64,000 nucleotides of DNA from an uncultured Bacteroidales bacterium (GCA_903926565.1 CAIYJU010000135.1:6751-70750); one strand, 5' to 3'. Positions 11,183-56,178 are shown, counted from the first letter of the stretch. Numbers and translations: made by a program. Notes: a model not told the origin generated them from the letters alone.

Positions 11183-12118
11183 TTATTGCGCAATTTTTAA
11201 ACTGGTGTATTGTTCTATCAGTTCGTTCACGATGAATTTCACCTTTTCCTGGTTGGTTTTTGAGCCAATCCTGCTGGTTTCTGACGTAAGAATATCCTGG
11301 CAGATTTTCCGGAACATATCTTTTGATTTCGAGGGTGTTGTTTTCAGGGTTGCCAGTGTTTTGGCAATCATGATGGAACCGCGGATGGTCGGATCGAATT
11401 CCGTTTTCCCTGATTCACGCAAACCTCTCACAATTTTAACGATAATTTCGGTATCCTTTAACGACAATTGCGATTTGGCCCTGGTAATCTGCAATTCGGT
11501 TTCATAGTCGAAATGGTCCAGGTCCATGGTCACCATGCGGTCGCGCAGTGCATCCTGCGTGCGGTTAACACCGGCATACTCTTCAGGGTTTGACGTAAAG
11601 ATGGCACGGAATTCAGGGTGTACCTTCATATAGTAATCCTCCTCCTTTGCTGCCGATGTGCTTAACATCCGCTCCTGAAGAATCGGAAGCAGGATATTGT
11701 TGGCCTCAGGACGTGAACGCGTAAATTCATCGTAGATCAGGGTGAACCCGTTTTTCACTGCGATGGTTAAACGGTTGTTCACCCATTGCTTGGTCATGTC
11801 CTCTTCATACTTATGAACAGAATGGATGAATTTGTCGTCAAGCTTTTTATATTTATACCCCTGTTCACTTCCGATCAAATCGGAAGTTTTATACTCGGCA
11901 TCACCATGGATAATGACAACAGGCCGGCCGATTTTACTTGCCAGGTGCATGGCTACCGTCGTTTTCCCGGTACCTGAAGGCCCCCTGAAATGAACCGGGA
12001 ATCCAGCCTGGATATACGTAAGGCCGCGGCTGGTGATGTCCCTTATGTAATCCGTTTCTACAAAATTGGACATCGGCTTCAGTTCAAGCACGGTATTCAT
12101 CTCATTGTTGTTGCTCAT
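11183..12118 (-). CDS. gvpN: gas vesicle protein GvpN (MoxR/CbbQ-like AAA+ ATPase)
   Basis: 311 aa. FVETDYIRDITSRGLTYIQAGFPVHFRGPSGTGKTTVAMHLA... and Walker B LIYDEFTRS are typical GvpN features. Confidence 0.9.
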   Translation of the reverse strand: MSNNNEMNTVLELKPMSNFVETDYIRDITSRGLTYIQAGFPVHFRGPSGTGKTTVAMHLASKIGRPVVIIHGDAEYKTSDLIGSEQGYKYKKLDDKFIHSVHKYEEDMTKQWVNNRLTIAVKNGFTLIYDEFTRSRPEANNILLPILQERMLSTSAAKEEDYYMKVHPEFRAIFTSNPEEYAGVNRTQDALRDRMVTMDLDHFDYETELQITRAKSQLSLKDTEIIVKIVRGLRESGKTEFDPTIRGSIMIAKTLATLKTTPSKSKDMFRKICQDILTSETSRIGSKTNQEKVKFIVNELIEQYTSLKIAQ

Positions 12119-12713: not shown

Positions 12714-13922
12714 TTATTTCAACGGGAAGTAAATGTTGTCAATTTTCTGCACTTTACCCTCGTCGAGCAAACCTTTGGCGGTAAAGCCAAGTTTCATGCG
12801 TGTTTCTCCCAGTGGTGCTTCCATCTCCGAGATCTTTACGCCCTTGGGATGTTTATTAATAAAATCCAGCACCTTATCTTCAAGTTTCAGGGGCTCTTCC
12901 TTAAATGTGGCAAATGCAAGAACTTCCTGGGCCGGAACGGCACTTACTGCCTCAGCCGGGGCTGCCTTTGCAGGGGCTGCAGGGGCCTCTTTTTTCGCCT
13001 CCTGTTTTTCAGCTTTCTTCGGTGCCTGTTTGGGTGCGGGAACAACGCCAGTTTTCCTGATATGGTCCATCGCACTTTTCATTTTATTCCATTCGGCCGA
13101 TGCCTCAACCCGGTTTTGCAGCAGATCATCCAGCATTGCACCGGTTGATTTCTGTACATCCCTGACCTCTTTCCGGATATCTTTAATAGAGACATGAATG
13201 CCTTTCATGATTGCATTAAAATCGCTGATCCGTTCGTTTTCGCCTTTGGCAAGATCTTTTCTCAGTTTCTGGGCCATTTTCTGGTTTTCCCTGCCGATTT
13301 CCGACAATCTTTTCTGGAACCCGGAAAGCAGGGTCCTCGTGTACTCAACCCTTTCTCCAAGGTTCTTGGCAAGTTCCGCTCTCAGTTCTGCCGACATGTC
13401 CTGATGTTCCTTTTCAAACCGGTCGAGCATATCATTCGTATTCAGGAAAATTGCCGAAACTTCATCATTGATACTTTTGATATCAGCATTGATGTTTGTC
13501 ATGAGGGCATCAAACTCCTTCATACGTGTTTTTTCATTTTGCGCCCGTCCGGCTCTTTCTTCAGCAAAGGACTTCCCAAGTTCCTCAGCCATCTGCGACC
13601 GCTCAACGGTAAATTCATTGATCATGTTAAACGTGGAAGTTTGAATCGCCACTACTTCCTTCTGGATGGAGGCAATTGTTCCATGGATTCCTGTCATTAA
13701 TCCCTTGAAGTTGCCCAGCCGTTCTTTCTCCCCGCGGGCGAGGCCTTTTCTTAATGCAGCAGCATTTGCATTTAAAGCGGCAGCCATCTCCTGGTGGTCC
13801 TTGCGGAAACCGTCAAGCGTTATCTGCACATCGTTAACAAGTTCTTCATTTTCCCTGATGCGCTGCCTGAATGATGCAAGCAACTCTTCTGTCAGGTTCT
13901 TCATGTCTGATGCTAGTCCCAT
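12714..13922 (-). CDS. repeat-containing coiled-coil protein with Pro/Ala/Lys linker and small C-terminal globular (winged-helix-like?) domain; candidate non-canonical GvpC analog
   Basis: 402 aa. Internal repeats are visible by eye: RKGLARGEKERLGNFKGLMTGIHGTIASIQKEVVAIQTST vs RKDLAKGENERISDFNAIMKGIHVSIKDIRKEVRDVQKST vs RAQNEKTRMKEFDALMTNINADIKSINDEVSAIFLNT. Also FRKDHQEMAAAL vs FEKEHQDMSAEL. These are followed by APKQAPKKAEKQEAKKEAPAAPAKAAPAEA and a roughly 60-aa tail. Confidence 0.75.
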   Translation of the reverse strand: MGLASDMKNLTEELLASFRQRIRENEELVNDVQITLDGFRKDHQEMAAALNANAAALRKGLARGEKERLGNFKGLMTGIHGTIASIQKEVVAIQTSTFNMINEFTVERSQMAEELGKSFAEERAGRAQNEKTRMKEFDALMTNINADIKSINDEVSAIFLNTNDMLDRFEKEHQDMSAELRAELAKNLGERVEYTRTLLSGFQKRLSEIGRENQKMAQKLRKDLAKGENERISDFNAIMKGIHVSIKDIRKEVRDVQKSTGAMLDDLLQNRVEASAEWNKMKSAMDHIRKTGVVPAPKQAPKKAEKQEAKKEAPAAPAKAAPAEAVSAVPAQEVLAFATFKEEPLKLEDKVLDFINKHPKGVKISEMEAPLGETRMKLGFTAKGLLDEGKVQKIDNIYFPLK

Positions 13923-13964
13923 GTTGTTATCTCCTATTTTAGAATTATTGATATGTTACCTGAA

Positions 13965-14764: not shown

Positions 14765-14968
14765 TTAAGCTGCTTTTGCAGTTAATCCGATGGCTTCAGC
14801 ATACTTCAGGTATGTTTCAACAGAGGCAACAACGATTCTTGCTTCAATTGCAAGCAATTCGATACCTACCAAAGAAACTCTTACCCATGCATCAACTACA
14901 ACACCTTTGTCAAGGATACGGTCGATAACTTCAACGAGGCTTGATGATCCGATAGTCTTTTCTACCAT
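14765..14968 (-). CDS. gvpA: major gas vesicle structural protein GvpA
   Basis: 67 aa. [55 protein letters not shown] is near-canonical GvpA. An SD-like GGAG sits about 9 nt upstream of the ATG, which is unusual for this window. Confidence 0.97.
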
Positions 14969-15144
14969 TTTTTTAATCTCCTATATTAAATAAAAAAAAC
15001 CGTGCTTTACATGAGGGACGGTTTACCTCTTGTGCCATGAGTATATACAAAGGGTGAGCCGTAAAAGAGATAATAACCAGGAAAACCCGTTTAAATGAGT
15101 TAAGCCCCTGAAGATGAAAACAAAAAAAAGTGATTTATTTTTTC

Positions 15145-15173
15145 AGAAAAAAATTACCACACGGAATGCGTGG
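15145..15173 (-). terminator. candidate intrinsic terminator downstream of the response-regulator gene
   Basis: The minus strand reads CCACGC-ATTCC-GTGTGG (6-bp stem with one G-U) followed by TAATTTTTTTCT. It lies about 80 nt after the stop at 15255. Confidence 0.35.
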
Positions 15174-15254
15174 AAATATCAGAACAGCCGGCAATATAAT
15201 CACGTGCTGTACGCGTTATCGCGTGAAACAAACAGCCTGTTTCCCTGTATAAGG

Positions 15255-16646
15255 TTAATCTTCGCTTTTATTCCCCGGAATATTGTACTTTTTCATTTTC
15301 CGGCTCAGGGCATCGCGGTGTATTCCGAGGGCATCTGCTGCAGCCTGCTGGTTGAACTTGCAAGCCAGCAGCACCTTACGGATCATCTTTATCTCAATCG
15401 TTTTCAAATTTGCTGAATCTGCCTCAGGAACATGCAATTCCGGCTTCGGTCCGTTAAGCGGGAAATCACGGACTTCAAGCCTGTTGCCTTTGCACAGGAT
15501 GGCTGCTCTTTCGACCAGGTTTCTAAGTTCCCGCACATTTCCGGGAAAATCGTATTTCACGAGCACATCAACGGCCTCCTTCGAAACATGGAGGGCAGGT
15601 TTGCTGAATTTCGAGGCATACACTTCAATAAAATAGTTCAGGAGAGGCTTGATATCTTCTGGTCTCTCCCGTAATGCCGGGATGTGAATGTGCAGTGTAT
15701 TGAGCCGGTGGAGGAGGTCGAGCCGGAATTTCTTCTTTGCAACCCTCTTATTAATATCGTGATTGGTTGCTGAAATAATGCGGAAGTTGGTCCGGATCTG
15801 GGCAGTATCGCCAACACGGGTTATCACCTTCTCTTCAGAAGCGCGCAGGATCTTTGCCTGAAGGTTGAGTGGCATATCCGCAATTTCATCCAGGAAAAGT
15901 GTCCCCCCGTTGCATACTTCAAAAAAACCCATTTTATCGGAGACGGCACCGGTAAATGAGCCTTTCTTATGACCAAAAAATTCACTTTCAAGAAGTGTTT
16001 CGGTAATGGCGCTGCTGTTTACCGCACCAAAAATATGATCTTTCCTGTTACTCGAATAGTGTATGATCCTTGCTATGTTCTCCTTGCCAGTTCCACTCTC
16101 CCCGGTAATCAGCACATTGGCATCAGGGTAATTCGCTGCTGCAAGGGCACTTTCAAAAACCTCGAGGATCCGGGGACTGACACCAATAAACTGCCGGTCG
16201 ATTTTCTCTTCAAGGGACTTCGAGATCAATGAGTTCTTCTCCTCCATCTGCTTCAGCCGTCGCTGCATCTGAAGATATTTCTGCGTCCGTTCTATGGCAA
16301 TCTGTATGTCAAGAAACCTGAATGGTTTGCGCAGGTAATCGAATGCCCCGAGACGCATGGCCTTGATTACGGTATCCATGTCACCGTGTGCAGAGATGAC
16401 GATAACCTCCATGAAAGGATAGTCACTTTTTACCTCTTTCAGAATATCGAGTCCATTCACACCCGGCAGGCGCACATCGAGGATGAGCAGGTCAATTGCG
16501 TGGATACTCATGATTTTTTTTCCTTCTGCAGCCGTGTTGGCCTCATACGAATCAAATTCCGAATCGACGAAAAATCCGCTTAACTCTTCCGTAAATTGCT
16601 TTTCATCGTCGAGGATCAGGATCTTGATCTTATTTTTCGCTTCCAT
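15255..16646 (-). CDS. sigma54-dependent Fis-family response regulator (NtrC-type: REC + AAA+ + HTH)
   Basis: 463 aa. REC domain (ILILDDE...DLLILDVRLPG), sigma54-interaction core (GESGTGKENIARIIH, GSFTGA loop, FLDEIADM) and C-terminal HTH (QQAAADALGIHRDALSRKMKKY). Confidence 0.92.
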   Translation of the reverse strand: MEAKNKIKILILDDEKQFTEELSGFFVDSEFDSYEANTAAEGKKIMSIHAIDLLILDVRLPGVNGLDILKEVKSDYPFMEVIVISAHGDMDTVIKAMRLGAFDYLRKPFRFLDIQIAIERTQKYLQMQRRLKQMEEKNSLISKSLEEKIDRQFIGVSPRILEVFESALAAANYPDANVLITGESGTGKENIARIIHYSSNRKDHIFGAVNSSAITETLLESEFFGHKKGSFTGAVSDKMGFFEVCNGGTLFLDEIADMPLNLQAKILRASEEKVITRVGDTAQIRTNFRIISATNHDINKRVAKKKFRLDLLHRLNTLHIHIPALRERPEDIKPLLNYFIEVYASKFSKPALHVSKEAVDVLVKYDFPGNVRELRNLVERAAILCKGNRLEVRDFPLNGPKPELHVPEADSANLKTIEIKMIRKVLLACKFNQQAAADALGIHRDALSRKMKKYNIPGNKSED

Positions 16647-16654
16647 GATGCCAG

Positions 16655-19600
16655 TTACAAGTGACTTGTCAATAATATTTTAACAATTGTTCCATGCATT
16701 TTGTTACTCACAACCTCAATGGTTCCTCCCATTGATTTGATTATCTGATAACAGATCGACAGCCCGAGCCCGGTTCCCTTTCCTTCATCTTTGGTCGTAT
16801 AAAAAGGGAGCATGATGTTGCTTATGTCGTCGGTGCTGATACCAATGCCATTGTCGGCGACTTCAACGATCAGATATCCATTCTCACTGTACGACCTGAT
16901 GTCAACAATCAGTTCACGCGCAGTTCCTTCATGGCCTTTGATGTCGATCACTGCATCTTTGGCATTTACGAGGAGGTTAATCATTACCTGTTCAAATTTA
17001 TACGTATTGCCATGTATCTGAGGAAGGTCCCTGTCAAGCTGAAGGTCCAGTGATATTCCAAGATGCTTGAACTGTTCGGCAATCATTGAAACGGCATTTT
17101 CGATGCTTGAGTTAATGTCAAAGGCTGTCAATAAATAATCATCCTGCGTTCTCGAGAATGTCCTGACATGGTCAATGATGTTTCGTATCCTGGTAATATT
17201 GTCAAAAATCTTTTCTGATTTTTTTACCAGGAAGTCCTGATCCTCACTTCCGGTTTTCGCCTTCTCAAATAAAATTTTATCCATGACCATTGATATGATA
17301 TTCAATGGCTGGTTGATTTCATGGGCGATGCCGGCTGCCATTTCGCCCAGGTTGGCCATCCTGTCGGAATGCATCAGCTTGGTTTCCATTTTTTTACGCT
17401 GGGAAATATCGCGGATAATGATCATAAAGGATAGCGGAGTGCCATCCTGACTTTGTATCAGTGTGGTGCTTATTTCAGCCGGAAACAACGTGTTGTTCCT
17501 CTTTCTTATTTTGAGTTCAATATTTTGTGCGAGCCCTTCATTGATTGTCTTTTCATATAAATCCCGAAACACCCTTCTTTCTTCTGATGGAACAAATGAC
17601 AGGCAATTTTTCCCCACCAGGTCATTCCGGGTCATGGCCCCGAATATTTCCAGCCCGATTTCAGAGGCTTCGCTGATAATTCCCCGGAGGTCGATCAAAA
17701 GAATGCCATCCGGAGAAGCATTCAGCATTGTTCTGTATTTTTCGTCACTCACCTTCCTGGCCTGCTCTTCTCTCTGGAGATCGGTGATATCCAGTGAGAT
17801 TCCAAGCAAATATTCAGGCTCACCCTGATCATCGAACATCGGCATCTTCTGCGTGTGCAATATCCGCACTCCTTTGTGCCTTGTCTGAATAGGCTCCTGG
17901 GGGATATCGGTCAACCTCTTATTGCTGAGAGCCTCGCGGTCTTTTTCCACAAAACCTGCCGCAGTTTCCTTCGGAAGGAAATCAAAGTCACTTTTACCCA
18001 CAAGCTCTTCCTGGGTAAAACCCAGAAGTTCCTCTCCCGCACGGTTGATCCTTACGAAACGCAGATCCTTTGCGTCCTTGATGAAAATCATGTCAGGAAT
18101 ATTATCAATGACCGAATCGAGAAAGCCGTTCACCCTGCGTATCTCTACCTCTGCCTGCTTTCGCTCTGTAACGTCGTGGACAACGGTATACCGGTATTTT
18201 TTCTCCTGGATGTTTATAATTTCAGCAGAGAGCATTACATGTTTGACGTCACCGTTCTTTGCAACCAGGTTCGTTTCAATGTTCATTCCATGCCCTTTAT
18301 CGGCGATCGATTGCAACAATTGGTTTCGACTGTCAACAGTTAAAATGCCCAATTCAAGGGGGGTTTTCCCTATAACTTCTTCTTTGACGAACCCGAGAAG
18401 CCTGCTAAACGCTTCATTTACCTCTATATATTTGCCCGTGATATAATCGTCGAGTCCGCAGGCCGAGGGATTGAGATAAAACACTTTTGAGAATTTCTCC
18501 TCCGACAGCTTGATCTGTGTGATGTCCTTGCTGACACCATAAATTGCCGGTTTCCCATTCCAGTGCCCCTTTGAAATCCTTGTTTCAACTTCAATCCGGA
18601 ACCCCGATTTGGCCATGATCGGGACATTGCAGTAGTCAACTTCTCCACGAAGCATCCCGGCTATAATTTTGCCTGCCTCCTTACGGAGTTCGGGCGGATG
18701 AACCATCAGCACCGATTGTCCGGTCAGTTCTTCCGGAGAGTAGCCAAGTCTTTGTATGACGGTGTTGTTGCAGTGTATAATAGCACCCTGTCCGTCAAGA
18801 ACAAAAAGGAAATCATCGATCGCATTAAAAAAGGTTTCAAAATTGTGATGCATTTGTTGCAACAGGACTTCGGTTTGCTTGCGTCCGGTGATATCGATCA
18901 CATTCATCAGGCATTGATTGTCTTGTCCGACAGTAATGCCTTCAACGTGGACATATTTTGGCCGTTCGCCTCCTGCTTCAAGGATTAGTTCGCATACCTG
19001 TTTTGAATTACTCTTAAAAACGTTCCTGAAAAAGAGATTGAAGGCCGGGAGTGTATTTCCTGAGACAACCCGGTCGAAACGGGTGCCCAATAATTTGGAC
19101 CGGTCACTTGCAAGCATTCGTGTCCCGCTGTAATTGAGATCCTGGATCACTTTGCCCTTTGACAGCGTAAAATAGGCTGACGGAGCAAAATCGTAGAGTT
19201 CTGAATATTTCAGGGAGGTAGCTTCCACCCTGGAATTTGCCTCCAGGAGTTCATCATTCTGCAGTTCCAGTTCAACCTGGTGACTCCTTAAGTTTTCCTC
19301 CATCTCTTTGCGCCGCGTGATGTCAATGGTAAAGCAAAGAAAGAGGTTATCAGAAAGCCTGGTGGCTTCAAGCACCCACCAGCGCAGCTCGCCGCTTTTA
19401 CGCCTGACAAAGATATCCGCCTGTAATGAGCCGTTAGTGATAAGGCTGTTCAAATGAGCCAGCCAATTCAGTTGTGAACTTTCGGTAAGGATATCCGGGA
19501 CAGACAGGGTTAAGAGTTCTTCGGAGGAGTATCCGCTCATTGCACAGGCAGCAGGGTTCACTTCGATGTAATTTCCTTTTTCATCCAGGATAAAAACACC

Positions 19601-20059
19601 GTCAGGGGCATGATCAATATAGCGTTTGTATCTCTGTTTACTTTGCTCCAGCGAAGAACTCAGCGTATCAAATCCCCTCCTTTTCGAAGCCTCCCTGAGT
19701 TCCTTCTCTACAATTGTGATGAAACGGGACATCTTCCCCTTTACCAGGATATCATGCACACCGGCTTTGACTAACTCTACTGCTTTTTCCTCTCCGATCG
19801 TTCCTGAAATGACGATAAACGGGATGTCAATTCCATGTGCATAATAGATTTCGAGTGCAGACTGAACACTGAAACGGGGCATGGAATAATCAGACAGAAT
19901 AATGTCCCAGTTGCCCCGGTTTAGCGCGATGGTCATCTGCTCACCATTCTCAACCCGCTCATAATGTACGTTATAGCCAGATGTACGCAGAATCCTTATG
20001 TTCATCTCGGCATCTGCCTGGTTGTCTTCAATAACCAGCACATTGAGTTTTTTATCCAT
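16655..20059 (-). CDS. hybrid sensor histidine kinase: N-terminal REC, multiple PAS/PAC, HisKA, HATPase_c
   Basis: 1134 aa. REC domain (VLVIEDNQADAE...ILSDYSMP). Several PAS-like blocks, each ending in ..DIT.RK..E. H-box GIAHEINQPLN and ATP-binding region GTGLGLSICYQII. 8-nt gap to the response-regulator gene. Confidence 0.9.
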   Translation of the reverse strand: MDKKLNVLVIEDNQADAEMNIRILRTSGYNVHYERVENGEQMTIALNRGNWDIILSDYSMPRFSVQSALEIYYAHGIDIPFIVISGTIGEEKAVELVKAGVHDILVKGKMSRFITIVEKELREASKRRGFDTLSSSLEQSKQRYKRYIDHAPDGVFILDEKGNYIEVNPAACAMSGYSSEELLTLSVPDILTESSQLNWLAHLNSLITNGSLQADIFVRRKSGELRWWVLEATRLSDNLFLCFTIDITRRKEMEENLRSHQVELELQNDELLEANSRVEATSLKYSELYDFAPSAYFTLSKGKVIQDLNYSGTRMLASDRSKLLGTRFDRVVSGNTLPAFNLFFRNVFKSNSKQVCELILEAGGERPKYVHVEGITVGQDNQCLMNVIDITGRKQTEVLLQQMHHNFETFFNAIDDFLFVLDGQGAIIHCNNTVIQRLGYSPEELTGQSVLMVHPPELRKEAGKIIAGMLRGEVDYCNVPIMAKSGFRIEVETRISKGHWNGKPAIYGVSKDITQIKLSEEKFSKVFYLNPSACGLDDYITGKYIEVNEAFSRLLGFVKEEVIGKTPLELGILTVDSRNQLLQSIADKGHGMNIETNLVAKNGDVKHVMLSAEIINIQEKKYRYTVVHDVTERKQAEVEIRRVNGFLDSVIDNIPDMIFIKDAKDLRFVRINRAGEELLGFTQEELVGKSDFDFLPKETAAGFVEKDREALSNKRLTDIPQEPIQTRHKGVRILHTQKMPMFDDQGEPEYLLGISLDITDLQREEQARKVSDEKYRTMLNASPDGILLIDLRGIISEASEIGLEIFGAMTRNDLVGKNCLSFVPSEERRVFRDLYEKTINEGLAQNIELKIRKRNNTLFPAEISTTLIQSQDGTPLSFMIIIRDISQRKKMETKLMHSDRMANLGEMAAGIAHEINQPLNIISMVMDKILFEKAKTGSEDQDFLVKKSEKIFDNITRIRNIIDHVRTFSRTQDDYLLTAFDINSSIENAVSMIAEQFKHLGISLDLQLDRDLPQIHGNTYKFEQVMINLLVNAKDAVIDIKGHEGTARELIVDIRSYSENGYLIVEVADNGIGISTDDISNIMLPFYTTKDEGKGTGLGLSICYQIIKSMGGTIEVVSNKMHGTIVKILLTSHL

Positions 20060-20129
20060 TGTATTACCTATAATACAGAATGATCATTTTTCCCGCCAGG
20101 CAAACTCCCTTTTGGCTGTCTATTTGCAA

Positions 20130-20137
20130 CAAAGGTA
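20130..20137 (-). promoter_or_regulatory. candidate -7 box (TACCTTTG) for the kinase/regulator operon
   Basis: The minus strand reads TACCTTTG (TAnnTTTG) about 70 nt upstream of the kinase ATG at 20059. Confidence 0.25.
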
Positions 20138-20209
20138 TTTCTTTACGGGGATTGAAGGGTTAAAATTCAGAAAAACTTCAAGTGGCTTCCTGGAAATCAA
20201 TGCTGCAGG

Positions 20210-23200
20210 CTATCTATCCTGTAACTCCATGAGCAGGAACTTAGTCTCGTAAGGTTTGAAAGCCAGCCAACAGGTGTGGAACATTAACCCGGCATCTGAG
20301 TTCCGGTCCCAGATTTTCAGGATCGGCTCTTCCAGCACATTGACCTCGGTTGCTGACCTGGCATGAACAGCAGATGCAAGCGTGGTGGAAGAGAGCCGCA
20401 TATCTTCGATCGGAATTGAATCATACTTGCCGGTAGTTTCACGAAGTTGAAATATGACCCCTTTCCCATTTGCCGACGGGCGGGCTGAAATAAGAGCAAG
20501 GTTATTCAACGTACTGGAAAAGAACGACCTGGGAATAAGTGCCGAATCAGACCCTGCCGAAGCAGGAAAAACCCTGGGCAGAAAAGGGATCCGGTTTTCC
20601 ATCCCGAACCTTGTGGCGAGGGTGTTTGAAGGATTGGCCCCCGATGTAACCTGGTAACTCCATTTCAGCTCGCCCTCCTGGCTGGCCAGGAAATTGGTTG
20701 TCCAGTAATTATTTAACACCCATGAAAAAATTTGTCCTGACGCGGGGTAGCTCATCCCCCCCTCCCTTCTTGGGGAGGGGCCGGGGGTGGGGTCATGAAA
20801 TCCTGGAAAGGGGCCGGGGGTGGGGTCTGGTAACCCGGGGGTGGGATTATTCCCCCTGAAAAACTTCCCCAGATTAATATCGCCCAGCTGCACCAGTGGG
20901 ATCTCCGGTGAAACAAAAACAACCTGCCCGCTGTCACTCCGAAGGGAGACAAAATTCTGAATGCCGGTCCAGTCGCTTGCCGACCCTTCGAGTTGTTCTT
21001 TCCCCGGAACCATGGTGCCTCCGGCTACTTCGGCAACATGATGACTTTTTTCCAGCTTAAATGGAAATGCAACGTAAACACCTTCAGGGTCTGTGACGGC
21101 AAGTTTCTTCATAGAGTAGCACAATTCGACCTTCTTTTCAAGATTGTACAGCCTGATTTCGCATCGGATCCCTGACGGATCTGCACACCCTTCCATTTGT
21201 CCTGACAGGATGATGCTCTGCCAGACCGGCCCCGGATGGATCGCACCCACCTTCAGATTGCTCCAGGTCTTTCGCGTAAACTCGTCAAGCTTATGTTGTT
21301 CCAGCTGGCCGCGGTTTTTTCCGAGGCGTTCATAAATAAATTCCCCGAGGGAGTATTTCGCGGAATTATCGATGATTTCCATCTTCCATTCCTTGTCATA
21401 AAACCCGGTAATTTTACTTGTCACCGGATCAAATGTTAACCGGTAATACTCATTTTCAAGGGTTCCACTGAAGGGTTTTTCCGCCAGGGGTTCCCTTGTT
21501 TCCCAGTCAACAGCGATCCTGTATACGGCATAACCCAGGGGTGGAATATCCTTCACATCGAGCATCCACCAGGTCCCCTCCTCACGGGTCGATACCTGCT
21601 GAAGCGCCATCACCTGGCTGCCTGCATCAAGGATCCTGAATTCTTTGTCCTTTGGCAGCAACTGGTGGTCTATATAAACCATCACCCCGCCGGAACGTCT
21701 CCAGTTCAGGGTATTGAAAACCGCGATGGTCGGATAACCCGAACGCGGAATGTATGGCTGCACCTGTCCCATCACATCTTCGCGCAGTATGTGGTTTTTC
21801 TTTACGGCACTCCAAACATAAGATTCCTTTTCACCCAGTTGCACCACGCTGTTTTCACAAAGCGGATCGGTGATACTCTCTGCCGCTCCGAAAGTATGTT
21901 CGTCATAAAATGCAATATCATCCGTGATCTGCTTCCGGAGTTCAACCAGGTGATTGTTCTGAGGCACTCCCATCATGGCGCTGACCGACATAAGTCCTTC
22001 GTTCGCAATGTAACCGGCGTGGGCTGAACGGGCATAAGCAGTCTGGATGGCAGCAGATCCGAAGCCATCCATCCACCAGTCGGGCCAGGCGCCGCGAATT
22101 ACGGGTAACTCACCGGCATGGTTCACCTTCATATAATCCATGAATTCAGAAATGGTGGCAAGCCGGAGTTTCGGCCACACATATTCCCTGTTCCACTGCT
22201 CCACCAGGGAACAGGCTGTGGTGGAAGGTGGTGAATTATCGGTAAGGTACCCGCTGAATTGTATCGCGTAATGATCGTAAGCATAACCTTTTAACGTTAT
22301 GTCCTGCAAATGCTGAAACAATCCTTTGCTGAAGGTTTCCGGGCTGCCAAGAATCCCGAGGCTGTTGGCCCACATGTAATGTTCGGGACGGTTAACGAGG
22401 ATCCGGTTTCCGGATGGCGATTCCCACCAAAAGGTGGTTGGCTTATCAAATGGTTTGTCTGCCCTGTGTGTATTTTGGGCCATATTCAGAAATTCGACCC
22501 CTGCACCGGAAAGGTAGTCAGTCAAACACCAGGGCACTCCGTTGATGTCGCTCTGCATGGCGGCCCTCACGGTAAATCCCTTATCACGCATCTCCTTTAT
22601 TGGCTGAAGTGTCGCAGCGATCATGGTTTCATCGGCAAGATCGGAGGAGTTCAGGAACAAACCGGTCAGTTCGACACGTCCCTCCTTTACCCTGCGTTTC
22701 AGGCGTTCAACCTGTAATCCCGGCCTTGTCAGAAGATACTCCCTTACCGCCCAGGATGTTTCACATGTCCAGCGAAACCTGGCATCATCCGGAAGAGAAT
22801 CAGTCTGATCGCAGAAATCGAGGGCATAATCAATGTATCTCAGGTGGTCGGGCAGAATCTCCGTTTGCGGGCGGGTGTACCCGATGTCGGTGTGGGTGTG
22901 CTGAACGAGGTAAATGGTGAATTGCCGGACAGGTGTGATGGTGAAGTTCCGGGTGAATGACGCTTCTCCGTTCAATTCAACGACTGCCGTATGTTCGCCC
23001 GCAGGAGTGGTTTCAGGAAGGAGGACTTTCACCTCGTTGAAGCCGGTTTCAAGGTTCAACTTAACTTTCGGGCCACCAGCGATATCAAGTGTGCCTGATA
23101 CAGGTTCTCCCAGATGAACAAACTGAAAAAGCACCGGGATCATATTCCCTTCGGGGTGCCGGACAAGGGCAGGCACCTGCTTTATCATAAGTTTTTCCTC

Positions 23201-23749
23201 CACTCCTGCTTCAAAGGTCATATACCATGATCTGCTTTCTTTCGACTCTCCTACGATGCGGATCTGTTGCGGCTTTCCCTTTTCGGTATAGGATGCAGGC
23301 AGGGTGAGTATGGCATATCCCATCAGATCACCATATTTATCAAGCATGGTGGTTTTAAAGAGCAGGGATGAACCACTGACGCCATCCACCACCCAGGTTT
23401 TCATCTCTGAGGTGAGTGGATTTGAAAAACCGAGCAGGTATTTTCCATTCACATATAACTTAAATTTGTGACTGTCGGTATTTGCATCAATGCCAAACAA
23501 CCAGATCAGCTTCACCTGATGCCCGGTATAACCTGCAGGGATCGTTTCACTCTGCCATTCAATATATTGTACCGAGTCGATGGAACGCAGCAGGAGTGAT
23601 GAAGTGACATCCGGCTGGGGGGAATGATATTGGAAACCACCGCCTTTTACAGATTTTGCATATCCCTTGAAGTACCCGTTCCATGTAACCTTTTGCGCCA
23701 TCATCAACATCGGGATTAACATGGCAAGGGTAACAACAAACTTTCGCAT
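20210..23749 (-). CDS. glycoside hydrolase family 38-like (alpha-mannosidase-type) secreted protein
   Basis: 1179 aa. Signal peptide (MRKFVVTLAMLIPMLMMAQ) and a GH38-type metal-site region (IYLVQHTHTDIGYTRPQTE). Carries an unusual Pro/Gly insert near the C-terminus (see repeats). Confidence 0.78.
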   Translation of the reverse strand: MRKFVVTLAMLIPMLMMAQKVTWNGYFKGYAKSVKGGGFQYHSPQPDVTSSLLLRSIDSVQYIEWQSETIPAGYTGHQVKLIWLFGIDANTDSHKFKLYVNGKYLLGFSNPLTSEMKTWVVDGVSGSSLLFKTTMLDKYGDLMGYAILTLPASYTEKGKPQQIRIVGESKESRSWYMTFEAGVEEKLMIKQVPALVRHPEGNMIPVLFQFVHLGEPVSGTLDIAGGPKVKLNLETGFNEVKVLLPETTPAGEHTAVVELNGEASFTRNFTITPVRQFTIYLVQHTHTDIGYTRPQTEILPDHLRYIDYALDFCDQTDSLPDDARFRWTCETSWAVREYLLTRPGLQVERLKRRVKEGRVELTGLFLNSSDLADETMIAATLQPIKEMRDKGFTVRAAMQSDINGVPWCLTDYLSGAGVEFLNMAQNTHRADKPFDKPTTFWWESPSGNRILVNRPEHYMWANSLGILGSPETFSKGLFQHLQDITLKGYAYDHYAIQFSGYLTDNSPPSTTACSLVEQWNREYVWPKLRLATISEFMDYMKVNHAGELPVIRGAWPDWWMDGFGSAAIQTAYARSAHAGYIANEGLMSVSAMMGVPQNNHLVELRKQITDDIAFYDEHTFGAAESITDPLCENSVVQLGEKESYVWSAVKKNHILREDVMGQVQPYIPRSGYPTIAVFNTLNWRRSGGVMVYIDHQLLPKDKEFRILDAGSQVMALQQVSTREEGTWWMLDVKDIPPLGYAVYRIAVDWETREPLAEKPFSGTLENEYYRLTFDPVTSKITGFYDKEWKMEIIDNSAKYSLGEFIYERLGKNRGQLEQHKLDEFTRKTWSNLKVGAIHPGPVWQSIILSGQMEGCADPSGIRCEIRLYNLEKKVELCYSMKKLAVTDPEGVYVAFPFKLEKSHHVAEVAGGTMVPGKEQLEGSASDWTGIQNFVSLRSDSGQVVFVSPEIPLVQLGDINLGKFFRGNNPTPGLPDPTPGPFPGFHDPTPGPSPRREGGMSYPASGQIFSWVLNNYWTTNFLASQEGELKWSYQVTSGANPSNTLATRFGMENRIPFLPRVFPASAGSDSALIPRSFFSSTLNNLALISARPSANGKGVIFQLRETTGKYDSIPIEDMRLSSTTLASAVHARSATEVNVLEEPILKIWDRNSDAGLMFHTCWLAFKPYETKFLLMELQDR
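20756..20846. repeat. GC-rich palindrome plus 18-nt direct repeat lying in frame inside the GH38 gene
   Basis: An 8-bp stem, cccctccc (20759-20766) / gggagggg (20773-20780). The 18-mer ggggccgggggtggggtc occurs identically at 20777-20794 and 20810-20827, with a partial third copy at 20833-20846. It encodes NPTPGLPDPTPGPFPGFHDPTPGPSPRREGG. Confidence 0.85.
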
Positions 23750-48957: not shown

Positions 48958-49033
48958 TTGAATAACTATAAATGGAAAGTGCAAACAAGATAAATTTGGA
49001 CTAAAGTCCTGCAAGCGGGTTGCCATTAGTTAA

Positions 49034-53665: not shown

Positions 53666-54532
53666 TTGCAGACCTCCGGCTTCCGAGTAATCCTTACTTT
53701 AACAAGATTCCCTGTTTCACTGGCAGTGACCTTTACGGCTTTTACCGCCCTGTTGCTGAGCCCGGTTGACCTCACTCCGGCCTCCCTGATTCCGGTGGCC
53801 GGCATTTTCCTGCTCGCTTCCGGTGCTTCTGCCTTCAACCAATACCAGGAGTGGCCTTACGACGAAAAGATGGAGCGCACACGGAGACGGCCGCTGCCAT
53901 CGCGCCGGATCACCACTGCAGAGGCACTCAGGTATTCAACAATGTTCATCATCGGGGGAATGCTGCTGCTGCTCTATTATGCCCCGCCTGTTTGTTTTCT
54001 CCTGGGGCTGGGAAATCTTGTCTGGTACAACGGCGTTTACACCTATCTGAAGCGAAAAACCGCATTTGCAGTCGTTCCGGGAGCACTTACAGGGGCCATC
54101 CCCATCTTCATGGGCTGGACAGCCGGGGGCGGCTCGCTGCTTGCACCTGAAGTTCTGTTCCTGGCATTTTTCCTTTTTCTCTGGCAGATGCCCCATTTCT
54201 GGCTGCTTACTCTTAAATACGGGCATGAATATCGCAATGCCGGCTTCCCGGTGCTGAACGACCTGTTCTCCGAATTCCAGATCAGGAGCGTTGTGATGGG
54301 GTGGATGATCGCCTCGTCGGGAGCTTCCATCATGCTGGTGCTGTTTAAAATACTGGCACATCCTGTGCTTGGTTATGCAATTATCGGGTTGAACATGTCA
54401 TTGCTGATCGTGATGTTCTGGCAGCTGTTCATGGCATCTTCTCTTCGTTACCGGCTGATTTTCATTGCCGCCAACCTGTTCATGCTGATCGTGATGCTGT
54501 CGCTGATTGCCGACAGGTTTGTGAGTGGCTGA
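53666..54532 (+). CDS. ctaB: protohaem IX farnesyltransferase (haem O synthase)
   Basis: 288 aa polytopic UbiA-family protein (NQYQEWPYDEKMERTRRRPLP). Position next to the oxidase genes supports the call. Confidence 0.88.
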   Translation: MQTSGFRVILTLTRFPVSLAVTFTAFTALLLSPVDLTPASLIPVAGIFLLASGASAFNQYQEWPYDEKMERTRRRPLPSRRITTAEALRYSTMFIIGGMLLLLYYAPPVCFLLGLGNLVWYNGVYTYLKRKTAFAVVPGALTGAIPIFMGWTAGGGSLLAPEVLFLAFFLFLWQMPHFWLLTLKYGHEYRNAGFPVLNDLFSEFQIRSVVMGWMIASSGASIMLVLFKILAHPVLGYAIIGLNMSLLIVMFWQLFMASSLRYRLIFIAANLFMLIVMLSLIADRFVSG

Positions 54533-54786: not shown

Positions 54787-56178
54787 ATGAATAATAACAT
54801 TTACAGGATTCCTTTCATTATACTGACCGCCATGGTCATCTGTACTATAAATGTGTATGCTGTCAAACGCGTTGTGTCTGTCGGAAATTTCTTTTTCAAC
54901 CCGGCAAGCATCAGCGCGAATGTTGGCGATACGATGCGCTGGGTTTGGGTTGCCGGTTTTCATACAACAACCTCATTGACCGTGCCCCCTGGTGCAGCAA
55001 TTTGGGATGCACCAATCACCAGTTCAAGCCAGACCTATGAATATAAAATAACGGTAGCCGGCAGCTACACGTATGATTGCAAAATTCACGGTCTCGGGAT
55101 GTCTGGTTCGTTTACCGCTGCAAATGTTACACCGACACTTGCCGTCGCACCATCAAATCAGAATGTAAGCGCCGCCTCGGGGAGTACTTCATTCGGCGTT
55201 ATTTCCAATTCCACATGGACGACCAGCAGCAATGCCGTTTGGTGCTCGGTAACAAGCGGCGGAACTGGAAATGGAACCATTACGGCGAATTATTTATCAA
55301 ATCCCGATGTAAGCCAACGGGTTGCATCAATTGTAGTTACAGTACCAGCCATTCCATCGCAAACAGTCACCGTTACACAGGCAGGATCGCCGCAATTACA
55401 GGCATCTGCCACCGCAACCCCTGCATCAATTATTGCCGGTCAATCTTCACAACTGGATATATCTCCAACCGGAGGCACCGGAACTTATTCCTATTCATGG
55501 ACCTCTGTTCCTGCCGGATTCACCTCAACATTGAAAAATCCCATTGTAACCCCAGCCATCACAACCGTTTACTCATGCATGGTAATGAGTGGAGCCCAAA
55601 TGGTAAACCCGACCACTTCTGTCACTGTTAATCCGGCGCCGCCGGCAACATTAATCCTCCAGAATAACACGATAATTAACGGACAATCATTTTGTTATAA
55701 TGCCAGCCAGACCATCACAGTGGGTGGCGATGGAAATTTATTTGACATTGAGAACGGGGGAATTGCGACAATGATTGCCGGACAAAATATCCTTTTTCTT
55801 CCCGGTACACTTGTTAATTCAGGTGGTAATTTGAATGCCTACATCACAGTAAATGGCCCCTACTGCACACCTGCAGCGGCACCTGCTATTTTAAGCCATG
55901 TTAAACAAGGTGAGATTCAGGGGCAAGCGACAACAACAATTTTCAGGGTTTTTCCAAACCCAACGTCAGGAGATTTTATGATTGAACAAAACGGCTCGCT
56001 TTCAGGTTCCCCAATCGCAGTTGATGTCATTGGAACTCTCGGAGAAACAGCGATATCTGAAAGACTCTCAGGAGAGTTCAGCCACAGGTTTTCTCTGGCC
56101 GGCAAACCTGCAGGAATTTATTACATCCGGTTAATTTTTGACGGCAGCACAGATGTTCTGAAACTTGTCAAACAGTAG
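54787..56178 (+). CDS. secreted cupredoxin (type-1 copper) - BACON-like - T9SS type-A CTD protein
   Basis: 463 aa. Plastocyanin-like ligand pattern (GFHTTT ... YDCKIHGLGM), a BACON-like segment (VAPSNQNVSAASGSTSFGVISNSTWTTSSNAVWCSV), and C-terminus FRVFPNPTSGDFMI...GIYYIRL. Confidence 0.8.
   Translation: MNNNIYRIPFIILTAMVICTINVYAVKRVVSVGNFFFNPASISANVGDTMRWVWVAGFHTTTSLTVPPGAAIWDAPITSSSQTYEYKITVAGSYTYDCKIHGLGMSGSFTAANVTPTLAVAPSNQNVSAASGSTSFGVISNSTWTTSSNAVWCSVTSGGTGNGTITANYLSNPDVSQRVASIVVTVPAIPSQTVTVTQAGSPQLQASATATPASIIAGQSSQLDISPTGGTGTYSYSWTSVPAGFTSTLKNPIVTPAITTVYSCMVMSGAQMVNPTTSVTVNPAPPATLILQNNTIINGQSFCYNASQTITVGGDGNLFDIENGGIATMIAGQNILFLPGTLVNSGGNLNAYITVNGPYCTPAAAPAILSHVKQGEIQGQATTTIFRVFPNPTSGDFMIEQNGSLSGSPIAVDVIGTLGETAISERLSGEFSHRFSLAGKPAGIYYIRLIFDGSTDVLKLVKQ

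Follow-up and report, generated by a model that had tools for sequence, protein, structure and literature searches.

The stretch of DNA analysed here (the window) comprises 64,000 nt of an uncultured Bacteroidales bacterium (GCA_903926565.1 CAIYJU010000135.1:6751-70750); all coordinates below are positions within it, and features lie on its minus strand unless a plus is given. It carries a gas-vesicle gene cluster that starts with gvpA (14765-14968) and extends to ~1401, and our subject is the proposed control of gvpA by a kinase/activator gene pair directly upstream of it. Along the minus strand, the genes follow in the order GH38 glycosidase (20210-23749), sensor kinase (16655-20059), NtrC-type activator (15255-16646), and gvpA, with 8 nt between the kinase stop and the activator gene and 286 nt between the activator stop codon and the gvpA ATG. 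The interval 14969-20209 showed no additional small gene for a stand-alone receiver. The gvpA gene encodes a 67-aa gas-vesicle shell protein that matches PF00741 and NF006874 above the cut-off (131.7 bits vs 100 on the GvpA NCBIfam cut-off), and the cluster that it heads contains gvpN, a gvpJ-like gene, genes for Hsp20, ArsA, and a CDC48-type ATPase, five GvpF/L genes, GvpG, and GvpK. Genes encoding CHU_C/type IX secretion system (T9SS) tails, BACON, and DUF5686 were found as further genes of the window; together with the relatives described below, they suggest a lake bacterium of a Bacteroidales/Prolixibacteraceae-like kind, and the lake DNA runs X1-X4 contained 54-82% of the sequence words. 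The gene coordinates, the 286-nt gap, and an intact GSFTGA loop in the activator had been put forward in an earlier reading of the DNA by itself (hereafter the sequence-only reading), and all of them were borne out.

The activator is an NtrC-family sigma-54 enhancer-binding response regulator of 463 aa, whose Pfam domains follow each other in the order Response_reg (PF00072), Sigma54_activat (PF00158), AAA_lid_14 (the lid, PF25601), and HTH_8 (a Fis-type helix-turn-helix, HTH; PF02954). The receiver (residues 9-118) contains Asp57 within LLILDVRLPG. The AAA+ sigma-54 interaction domain (PF00158, E 6.6e-60) displays Walker A GESGTGK at residue 182, Walker B FLDE at 251, and the sigma-54 contact loop GSFTGA at residues 229-234, a one-residue variant of GAFTGA with Ser at position 2, and the HTH (residues 414-454) carries the recognition helix LGIHRDALSRK. 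Every defining domain and motif of a sigma-54 activator is present in this protein. Its best NCBIfam matches were ntrC (TIGR01818, 352.6 against a cut-off of 558.6) and AtoC (NF008469, 351.4 against 714), and it stayed under the NCBIfam cut-offs of NtrC, AtoC, ZraR, and other named regulators. Because these scores are well below all equivalog cut-offs, we regard the activator as an unnamed member of the family.

The kinase, identified from Pfam and NCBIfam matches, is a cytoplasmic sensor histidine kinase of 1134 aa with an N-terminal receiver (Asp56), five to six PAS domains, HisKA (His913), and HATPase_c; its best NCBIfam match was AtoS. No transmembrane or hydrophobic segment, no LOV signature, and no cofactor signature were found in its sequence. 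An orthologous REC-PAS(n)-kinase lies directly upstream of the activator in the relatives described below, where the N-terminal receiver, the last PAS, and the catalytic core are constant, with anything from one PAS domain (in L042, 356 aa, and L018, 429 aa) to six (in the window). Since the PAS number varies from 1 to 6 among orthologues, a multiplicity of PAS domains is a feature of this genome and not of the system. The suggestion of redox, light, or oxygen input, which the sequence-only reading had drawn from the many PAS domains, finds no support in this variation, in the lack of a LOV signature, or in the constancy of the receiver, which instead suggests input from another kinase. A scan for TAnnTTTG boxes located TACCTTTG, a box of the Bacteroidota -7 type at 20130-20137, 78 nt before the kinase ATG, which is likely the housekeeping promoter of the kinase-activator operon.

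We scanned the regulator protein against one genome per species, which gave 80 loci, and then surveyed the neighbouring genes by tblastn. The gvpA gene was found directly downstream of the regulator in 11 loci from Bacteroidota metagenome-assembled genomes (MAGs; L001, L002, L003, L006, L008, L009, L010, L013, L014, L017, and L027), and likewise in L042, a contig binned as Spirochaetales. In L007, the contig ends just before gvpA with the whole control region present, and L109 and L163 were added by a metagenome scan (see below). The order kinase, regulator, control region, and gvpA was thus found in 15 further loci (14 Bacteroidota and L042), so that the synteny proposed as a check in the sequence-only reading does recur. 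The gap between activator and gvpA in these loci measured about 260-370 nt, and 708 and ~1000 nt in loci that carry inserts; the regulator was 72-80% identical to that of the window in the Bacteroidota loci and 55% identical in L042; and the downstream gvp genes were collinear with the window as far as the contigs reach. A maximum-likelihood tree built from 53 regulators placed most of those linked to gvpA in one clade, interleaved with and sister to regulators from cassettes with other cargo.

Some individual loci deserve mention on their own account. L042 contains the whole cassette and a collinear gvp cluster, with GvpA 94%, GvpN 80%, and the activator 55% identical, which reflects either a transfer between phyla or a binning error. 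Four Chlorobiaceae MAGs (L036, L038, L043, and L045) encode activators that are 60-61% identical, and L038 has gvp genes on the other strand at a distance of 6-10 kb. L004 holds the closest activator homologue (80%) with a helix of the CGCGTA type, yet shows no enhancer, promoter, or gvpA in the 5.7 kb downstream; this may be due to rearrangement, loss, or misassembly.

The putative sigma-54 promoter of gvpA, aCGGCTCACCCTTTGTat at 15045-15062, was recognised by its positional homology to the -24/-12 elements of the relatives. It consists of GG at 15060-15059 and TTTG at 15051-15048, with T15047 in place of the -12 C, and reads cGGCtC-N5-TTGt, where the GG, the TTG, and the spacing match TGGCAC-N5-TTGC and the -12 C is a T. 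In our alignment of 12 gvpA control regions (A2), the GG and the TTTG were invariant in all 12 loci. At the homologous position, six relatives displayed a canonical or near-canonical TGGC(A/C)N-N5-TTGC: TGGCAC-N5-TTGC in L008 (TGGCACTCCCTTTGC) and in L009 and L013 (both TGGCACACCCTTTGC), TGGCAT in L027 (TGGCATCATCTTTGC) and L042 (TGGCATTCTTTTTGC), and TGGCCC in L109. The distance from the start of the promoter site, taken as 2 nt before the -24 GG, to the gvpA ATG was 89-99 nt in 12 of the 15 measurable loci, the exceptions being L042 with 74 nt and L003 and L013 with 169-170 nt, both of which carry an insert. Using a simple -24/-12 consensus score with a maximum of 18, we found sites of at least 16/18 within 500 nt after the regulator gene in 18 of ~44 orthologous cassettes, compared to ~2 expected. 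With the -12 position at 15047, transcription is predicted to start at ~15035.

The gvpA leader is, in addition, devoid of the housekeeping box. The sequence-only reading had listed TAnnTTTG boxes upstream of carA, the kinase, glyA, 42669, 45296, and 54787 and had found none before gvpA; all six boxes were recovered, together with a further one upstream of pfk, and no TAnnTTTG box occurred in any of the 16 homologous gvpA control regions (4.9 kb), the window included. As the background amounts to 0.375 boxes per kb per strand, a single box-free stretch of 286 nt would be expected by chance, and the absence gains meaning only because all 16 control regions share it.

Directly after the activator stop codon lies a candidate upstream activator site with three half-sites, CACGCG-ataa-CGCGTA-cag-CACGTG (15201-15225), followed by ATTATATT, the whole stretch spanning 15225-15193. 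We propose it on the basis of fixed spacing, conservation, and co-variation with the recognition helix. It forms a conserved block of A2, and in the window 148 bp separate its centre from the -24 GG farther downstream; all Bacteroidota gvpA loci contain a palindrome CGC(G/A)(T/C)A-N2-4-T(A/G)(C/T)GCG at -158/-150 from the -24 GG. Where inserts part this putative enhancer from the activator gene (L002, L007, L012, L025, and L028), it still lies ~150 bp from the promoter, and in L029, L031, and L032 the half-sites are arranged as direct repeats. Across ~45 orthologues, the half-sites also change with the recognition helix of the activator: LGIHRDAL(S/G)RK was paired with CGCGTA/TACG(C/T)G in 12/12 loci with enough sequence, LGI(T/S)RDALIRK with CGCACA/TGTGCG in about 24/29 loci, and LGIQRMAL(A/T)RK with GCTCA/TGAGC in 3/3 loci. 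This pattern matches what co-evolution of a regulator with its site would predict.

Between the enhancer and the promoter, three further blocks were distinguished. A terminator scan found a hairpin of the intrinsic-terminator type, CCACGCATTCCGTGTGG followed by seven T (15147-15173; dG -8.1 kcal/mol, z -4.2), which likely marks the end of the kinase-activator transcript; analogous hairpins with a T-run occur in L018 and L021. We propose that kinase and activator form a two-gene operon with its own housekeeping-type promoter and its own terminator. Adjacent to the hairpin, CTGAAAAAATAAATCACTTTTTTTTG (15121-15146) contains an A-run and then a T-run (A2 columns ~100-125), and this A-tract/T-tract block is a candidate bending site that may bind a protein of the integration host factor (IHF)/HU type. 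A second conserved block (15093-15116; A2 columns ~128-150) is degenerate in the window (TTCAGGGGCTTAACTCA); in relatives it takes the form of an inverted repeat, TCAG-N8-CTGA, ~45-60 bp upstream of the -24 GG. This repeat is confined to gvpA control regions and absent from cassettes without gvp genes, and may be a site for a second regulator or another factor.

Downstream of the predicted start, the gvpA leader contains a conserved 33-nt element, AAGAGGTAAACCGTCCCTCATGTAAAGCACGGT (14999-15031), that was nearly invariant in 16 leaders and not present in cassettes without gvp genes. It can be folded as a 5-bp hairpin (ACCGU/ACGGU), to which a GAGG/CCUC pairing would add a pseudoknot. In the alignment, 95% of cells paired with almost no covariation, L027 adding one compensating U:A pair, and the folding energy was no better than that of shuffled sequences (minimum free energy z -1.0 to -1.2). 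No Rfam family reached its threshold in the leader of the window or of seven relatives; the matches to freshwater-2, DUF2815, and mir-7132 were weak and taken as chance. Among these, freshwater-2 (RF02980), a cis-regulatory candidate RNA from freshwater metagenomes whose gene context is not given in the text of its paper, matched weakly over its full length across 14966-15052 and shares the AGGAGA-N-AAAUG end. The match scored 17.4 bits, whereas the gathering score is 49.9, and the seven relatives gave none at E <=1; the leader is not a member of this family. Two other ideas, both judged by eye, were dropped: a start-stop open reading frame within the leader, as its ATG-TAA is missing in L006, L007, L017, and L163, and pairing of the element with the Shine-Dalgarno word, as L002 and L027 keep the element without that word. 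We also scanned metagenomes with the pattern GAGGTAAN{3,5}GTCCCTC, which returned mostly chance matches; among the matches listed, only L109, L157, and L163 were true gvpA leaders. In L003 (~11610-11690), L013 (~11625-11705), and L157, the leader contains an insert of ~75 nt that holds GTCGTTCGAGTCCGGCAC, which resembles a tRNA T-arm, and is bounded by a duplicated GAGGTAA(A/G)CC; these features suggest a small element that is mobile or derived from a tRNA.

In relatives with tandem gvpA copies, the leader element begins anew 19-26 nt past the first gvpA stop, as observed in the lake metatranscriptome runs X12, X13, X22, and X25, which were compared on window positions 14765-15031 and whose contigs join the gvpA stop to position 15031. 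This recurrence would be slightly easier to explain if the element acted in the RNA, stabilising the 5' end or serving as a signal for translation or processing, than if it belonged to the promoter, although the element could also be the mere boundary of the duplicated unit.

The leader ends in a Shine-Dalgarno-like word, TAGGAGAT (14976-14983), 7 nt before the gvpA ATG. Bacteroidota mostly lack Shine-Dalgarno sequences, and in the window such words were found upstream of 3/16 gvp genes and 1/24 other genes. The strong form occurred only before gvpA and, at 13929-13936, before orf402 (12714-13922), the third gene of the gvp cluster. It is also kept before the orf402 homologues of L003, L008, L010, and L013. 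The shared word suggests a special translational control of gvpA and orf402, which probably encode two bulk structural proteins.

RNA data from nature were available as short Logan contigs. Contigs of gvpA-like sequence appeared at high depth in seven lake metatranscriptomes, some of them identical to the window over 14943-14991, and the coverage of gvpA and its leader ended at 15031-15035 with no contig upstream, the contigs being short and many of them derived from relatives. These data are weak evidence, in keeping with transcription starting near 15035 and with this type of gvpA being strongly expressed in nature.

From the gene content and the motifs, which are conserved and evenly spaced among relatives, and from the helix/half-site co-variation that we observed, we infer that the adjacent kinase/activator pair drives gvpA through the sigma-54 promoter at 15062-15045, and we put the probability of this reading at roughly 0.78. 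The proposal of the sequence-only reading, that the adjacent pair exerts sigma-54 control much as GvrA does in Serratia, hence gains backing from the synteny in 15 loci, the conserved -24/-12 element, and the co-variation of helix and enhancer. In the mechanism that we envisage, the cytoplasmic REC-PAS kinase, in response to whatever signal it may sense, would phosphorylate the receiver of the activator at Asp57, upon which the phosphorylated activator would assemble on the palindromic enhancer at 15201-15225. The A/T-tract would aid its contact with sigma-54 RNA polymerase at 15062-15045, where ATP would be used for promoter opening. Transcription would then start near 15035 and produce a leader of ~67 nt, with the conserved 33-nt element first, where it may act in the RNA, and the unusually strong Shine-Dalgarno word last, and the transcript would cover gvpA and probably further gvp genes.

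Several observations weigh against this reading. Three letters of the window promoter differ from the consensus: C replaces T at -26, T replaces A at -22, and T replaces C at -12. By itself, the GG/TTTG site reached only 14.5/18 on the consensus score, a level found 0.7 times per kb per strand in the window and thus no better than chance; because its own score is of chance level, the site is credible only through its positional homology. Few positions of sigma-54 promoters are as well conserved as the -12 GC, and the C was absent from 9/16 gvpA-linked promoters, the window included (TTTGT, TTTGG, or TTTGA), as well as from related cassettes without gvp genes, which we consider a mild anomaly of this promoter family. 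A search for the RpoN box revealed no rpoN in the window or the loci of the relatives, nor was it seen among the genes within ~10 kb beyond either end of the window. Orthologues of the pair (60-76% identity) adjoin or drive non-gvp genes, so adjacency alone is no proof of a gvp-specific role. The changes in helix and half-site map to only two or three branches of the tree, that is, to few independent events. Last, the RNA contigs are short and come partly from relatives, and their upstream limit may reflect only sequence divergence.

The weak score and the three departures, set beside the canonical sites of L008, L009, and L013, could mean that the window copy of the promoter has decayed, such that gvpA is silent, weak, or otherwise expressed here and only the ancestral design was sigma-54 dependent. 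We consider this unlikely: the GG and TTTG that are invariant in the family are intact, the -12 C is also missing in eight other relatives with intact clusters, the enhancer, the A/T-tract, and the leader are all kept, and RNA contigs free of mismatches over 14943-14991 were found at high depth in lake metatranscriptomes. A different site had been noted in the sequence-only reading, namely TGGCAC at 15037-15032, 69 nt before the ATG, together with the lack of TTGC at the -12 position. The hexamer is indeed exact and lies where described, at the predicted transcription start, and it could be a -24 element with an aberrant -12 region. Its -12 position, however, reads GTAA (12.5/18); the hexamer is not conserved in L006 (ATCGAA), L009 (GCCATA), L017, and L027; and it lies downstream of the conserved GG-N10-TTTG, within a block also found between tandem gvpA copies, a place in which one would not expect a promoter. 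We rejected it as very improbable, the homologue of the relatives' promoters being ~25 nt upstream, at 15062-15045.

Alternatively, transcripts of the kinase-activator operon could run on into gvpA, or gvpA could have a housekeeping or alternative-sigma promoter that escaped recognition, with the activator acting elsewhere and the palindrome at 15201-15225 being only a terminator. A T-rich run does follow the palindrome, which was weakly flagged as terminator-like, in L023, L024, and L033 a palindrome CCGCACA..TGTGCGG precedes eight T, and orthologous pairs adjoin unrelated genes. Against this stands the behaviour of the palindrome itself: its sequence is conserved beyond what pairing would demand, it occurs as direct repeats in some loci, it tracks the recognition helix, and it keeps its ~150 bp to the -24/-12 element and not to the stop codon. 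As RNA, it forms no stable hairpin (z -0.35), and a separate good terminator lies downstream. Because of this sequence conservation, promoter-bound spacing, helix tracking, and RNA instability, we read the palindrome as an activator site and not as a mere terminator of the regulator gene, and with no -7 box in the 16 control regions, expression of gvpA without the activator appears improbable. Sigma-54-dependent activation by the adjacent pair hence remains our preferred reading.

Taken together, kinase, regulator, enhancer, and promoter look like a portable cassette. In ten cassettes (L012, L016, L018, L021, L025, L026, L028, L029, L031, and L032), none with gvp genes, the promoter is followed by a gene of ~65 aa, and other cargo included DUF4402, PorP/SprF, HYR-repeat, and TonB-receptor genes as well as a GvpF-DnaJ gene. 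The ~65-aa cargo protein is homologous to the last 57-62 residues of orf402 (43-63% identity), which form a C-terminal winged-helix domain (12717-12902) as delineated by tblastn and our alignment A3. The AlphaFold2 (AF2) model of this domain had a predicted local distance difference test (pLDDT) score of 91, and Foldseek found it to resemble the winged helices of IclR, MarR, Z-alpha, and CggR (template modelling, TM, scores of 0.75-0.85); no Pfam match, and no PDB match by sequence search, was obtained. Loci of the gas-vesicle lineage differ in that the promoter and this usual winged-helix cargo are separated by gvpA, orf218, and the repeat-rich part of orf402. A speculative scenario, which we hold as rather doubtful, is that the ~65-aa winged helix was the original cargo, that gvpA, orf218, and a repeat-rich GvpC-like region were inserted between it and the promoter, and that the winged helix, now the C-terminus of orf402 as a probable vesicle-associated protein, may feed back on operator-like blocks (TCAG-N8-CTGA or the +1 to +35 leader) and so link vesicle assembly to transcription, or else that the 33-nt element represents a new RNA specific to gvpA, with a regulatory or stabilising function.

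Elsewhere in the window, TGGCACATCCTGTGCT on the plus strand (54354-54369) scored 17/18, the joint-best generic sigma-54-like site, tied with one at 49010-49025 on the minus strand. It lies within the 3' part of a UbiA-family gene, 417 nt before the BACON/T9SS-tail gene at 54787, and may be a chance occurrence.

Gas vesicles let uncultured anaerobic lake Bacteroidota hold depth, and to our knowledge nothing is known about how these bacteria regulate their buoyancy. The locus provides a complete and testable circuit with exact coordinates, comprising sensor, activator, enhancer, promoter, and leader, and the natural variants of helix and half-site predict binding specificity. The control cassette is also reused for other cargo. 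That some half of the promoters in the family lack the -12 C, and that a strong Shine-Dalgarno word, rare in this phylum, precedes gvpA and orf402, are small leads on promoter silencing and translational control. Control of gvpA by sigma-54 and an NtrC-type activator is known from Serratia, in a system that is reportedly also credited to Ramsay 2011, and would here extend to another phylum.

In Serratia sp. ATCC 39006, the gvpA1 start is preceded by a sigma-54 consensus and transcription needs the NtrC-like GvrA together with GvrB and GvrC, and Proteobacterial gvp clusters generally have gvrA heading a second operon (Tashiro 2016, PMC4982088). The present locus resembles that of Serratia in arrangement only: gvpA comes first in the cluster, a promoter of the sigma-54 -24/-12 type, here a putative one, precedes it, and an NtrC-family activator lies beside the cluster. 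In Serratia, the activator heads the second gvp operon (gvrA...gvrB, gvrC) and quorum sensing (SmaR) is overlaid, whereas here, in Bacteroidota, a kinase-activator operon with a REC-PAS hybrid kinase is placed directly upstream of gvpA, the -12 C is missing, the cassette also serves non-gvp genes, and the system is known from sequence alone. With NtrB/NtrC at glnAp2, AtoS/AtoC, and ZraS/ZraR, the pair shares the combination of a kinase and a REC-AAA+-HTH_8 activator as well as, in the proposed layout, palindromic enhancer sites that lie >100 bp ahead of a -24/-12 promoter and are parted from it by bendable DNA, but it differs from all three in target and sensor architecture and scores far under the equivalog cut-offs. 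In haloarchaea, regulators encoded by the cluster, the bZIP-like activator GvpE and its antagonist GvpD, control the gvpA promoter within archaeal transcription; the cluster-linked control proposed here is alike, whereas the proteins and the mechanism are unrelated.

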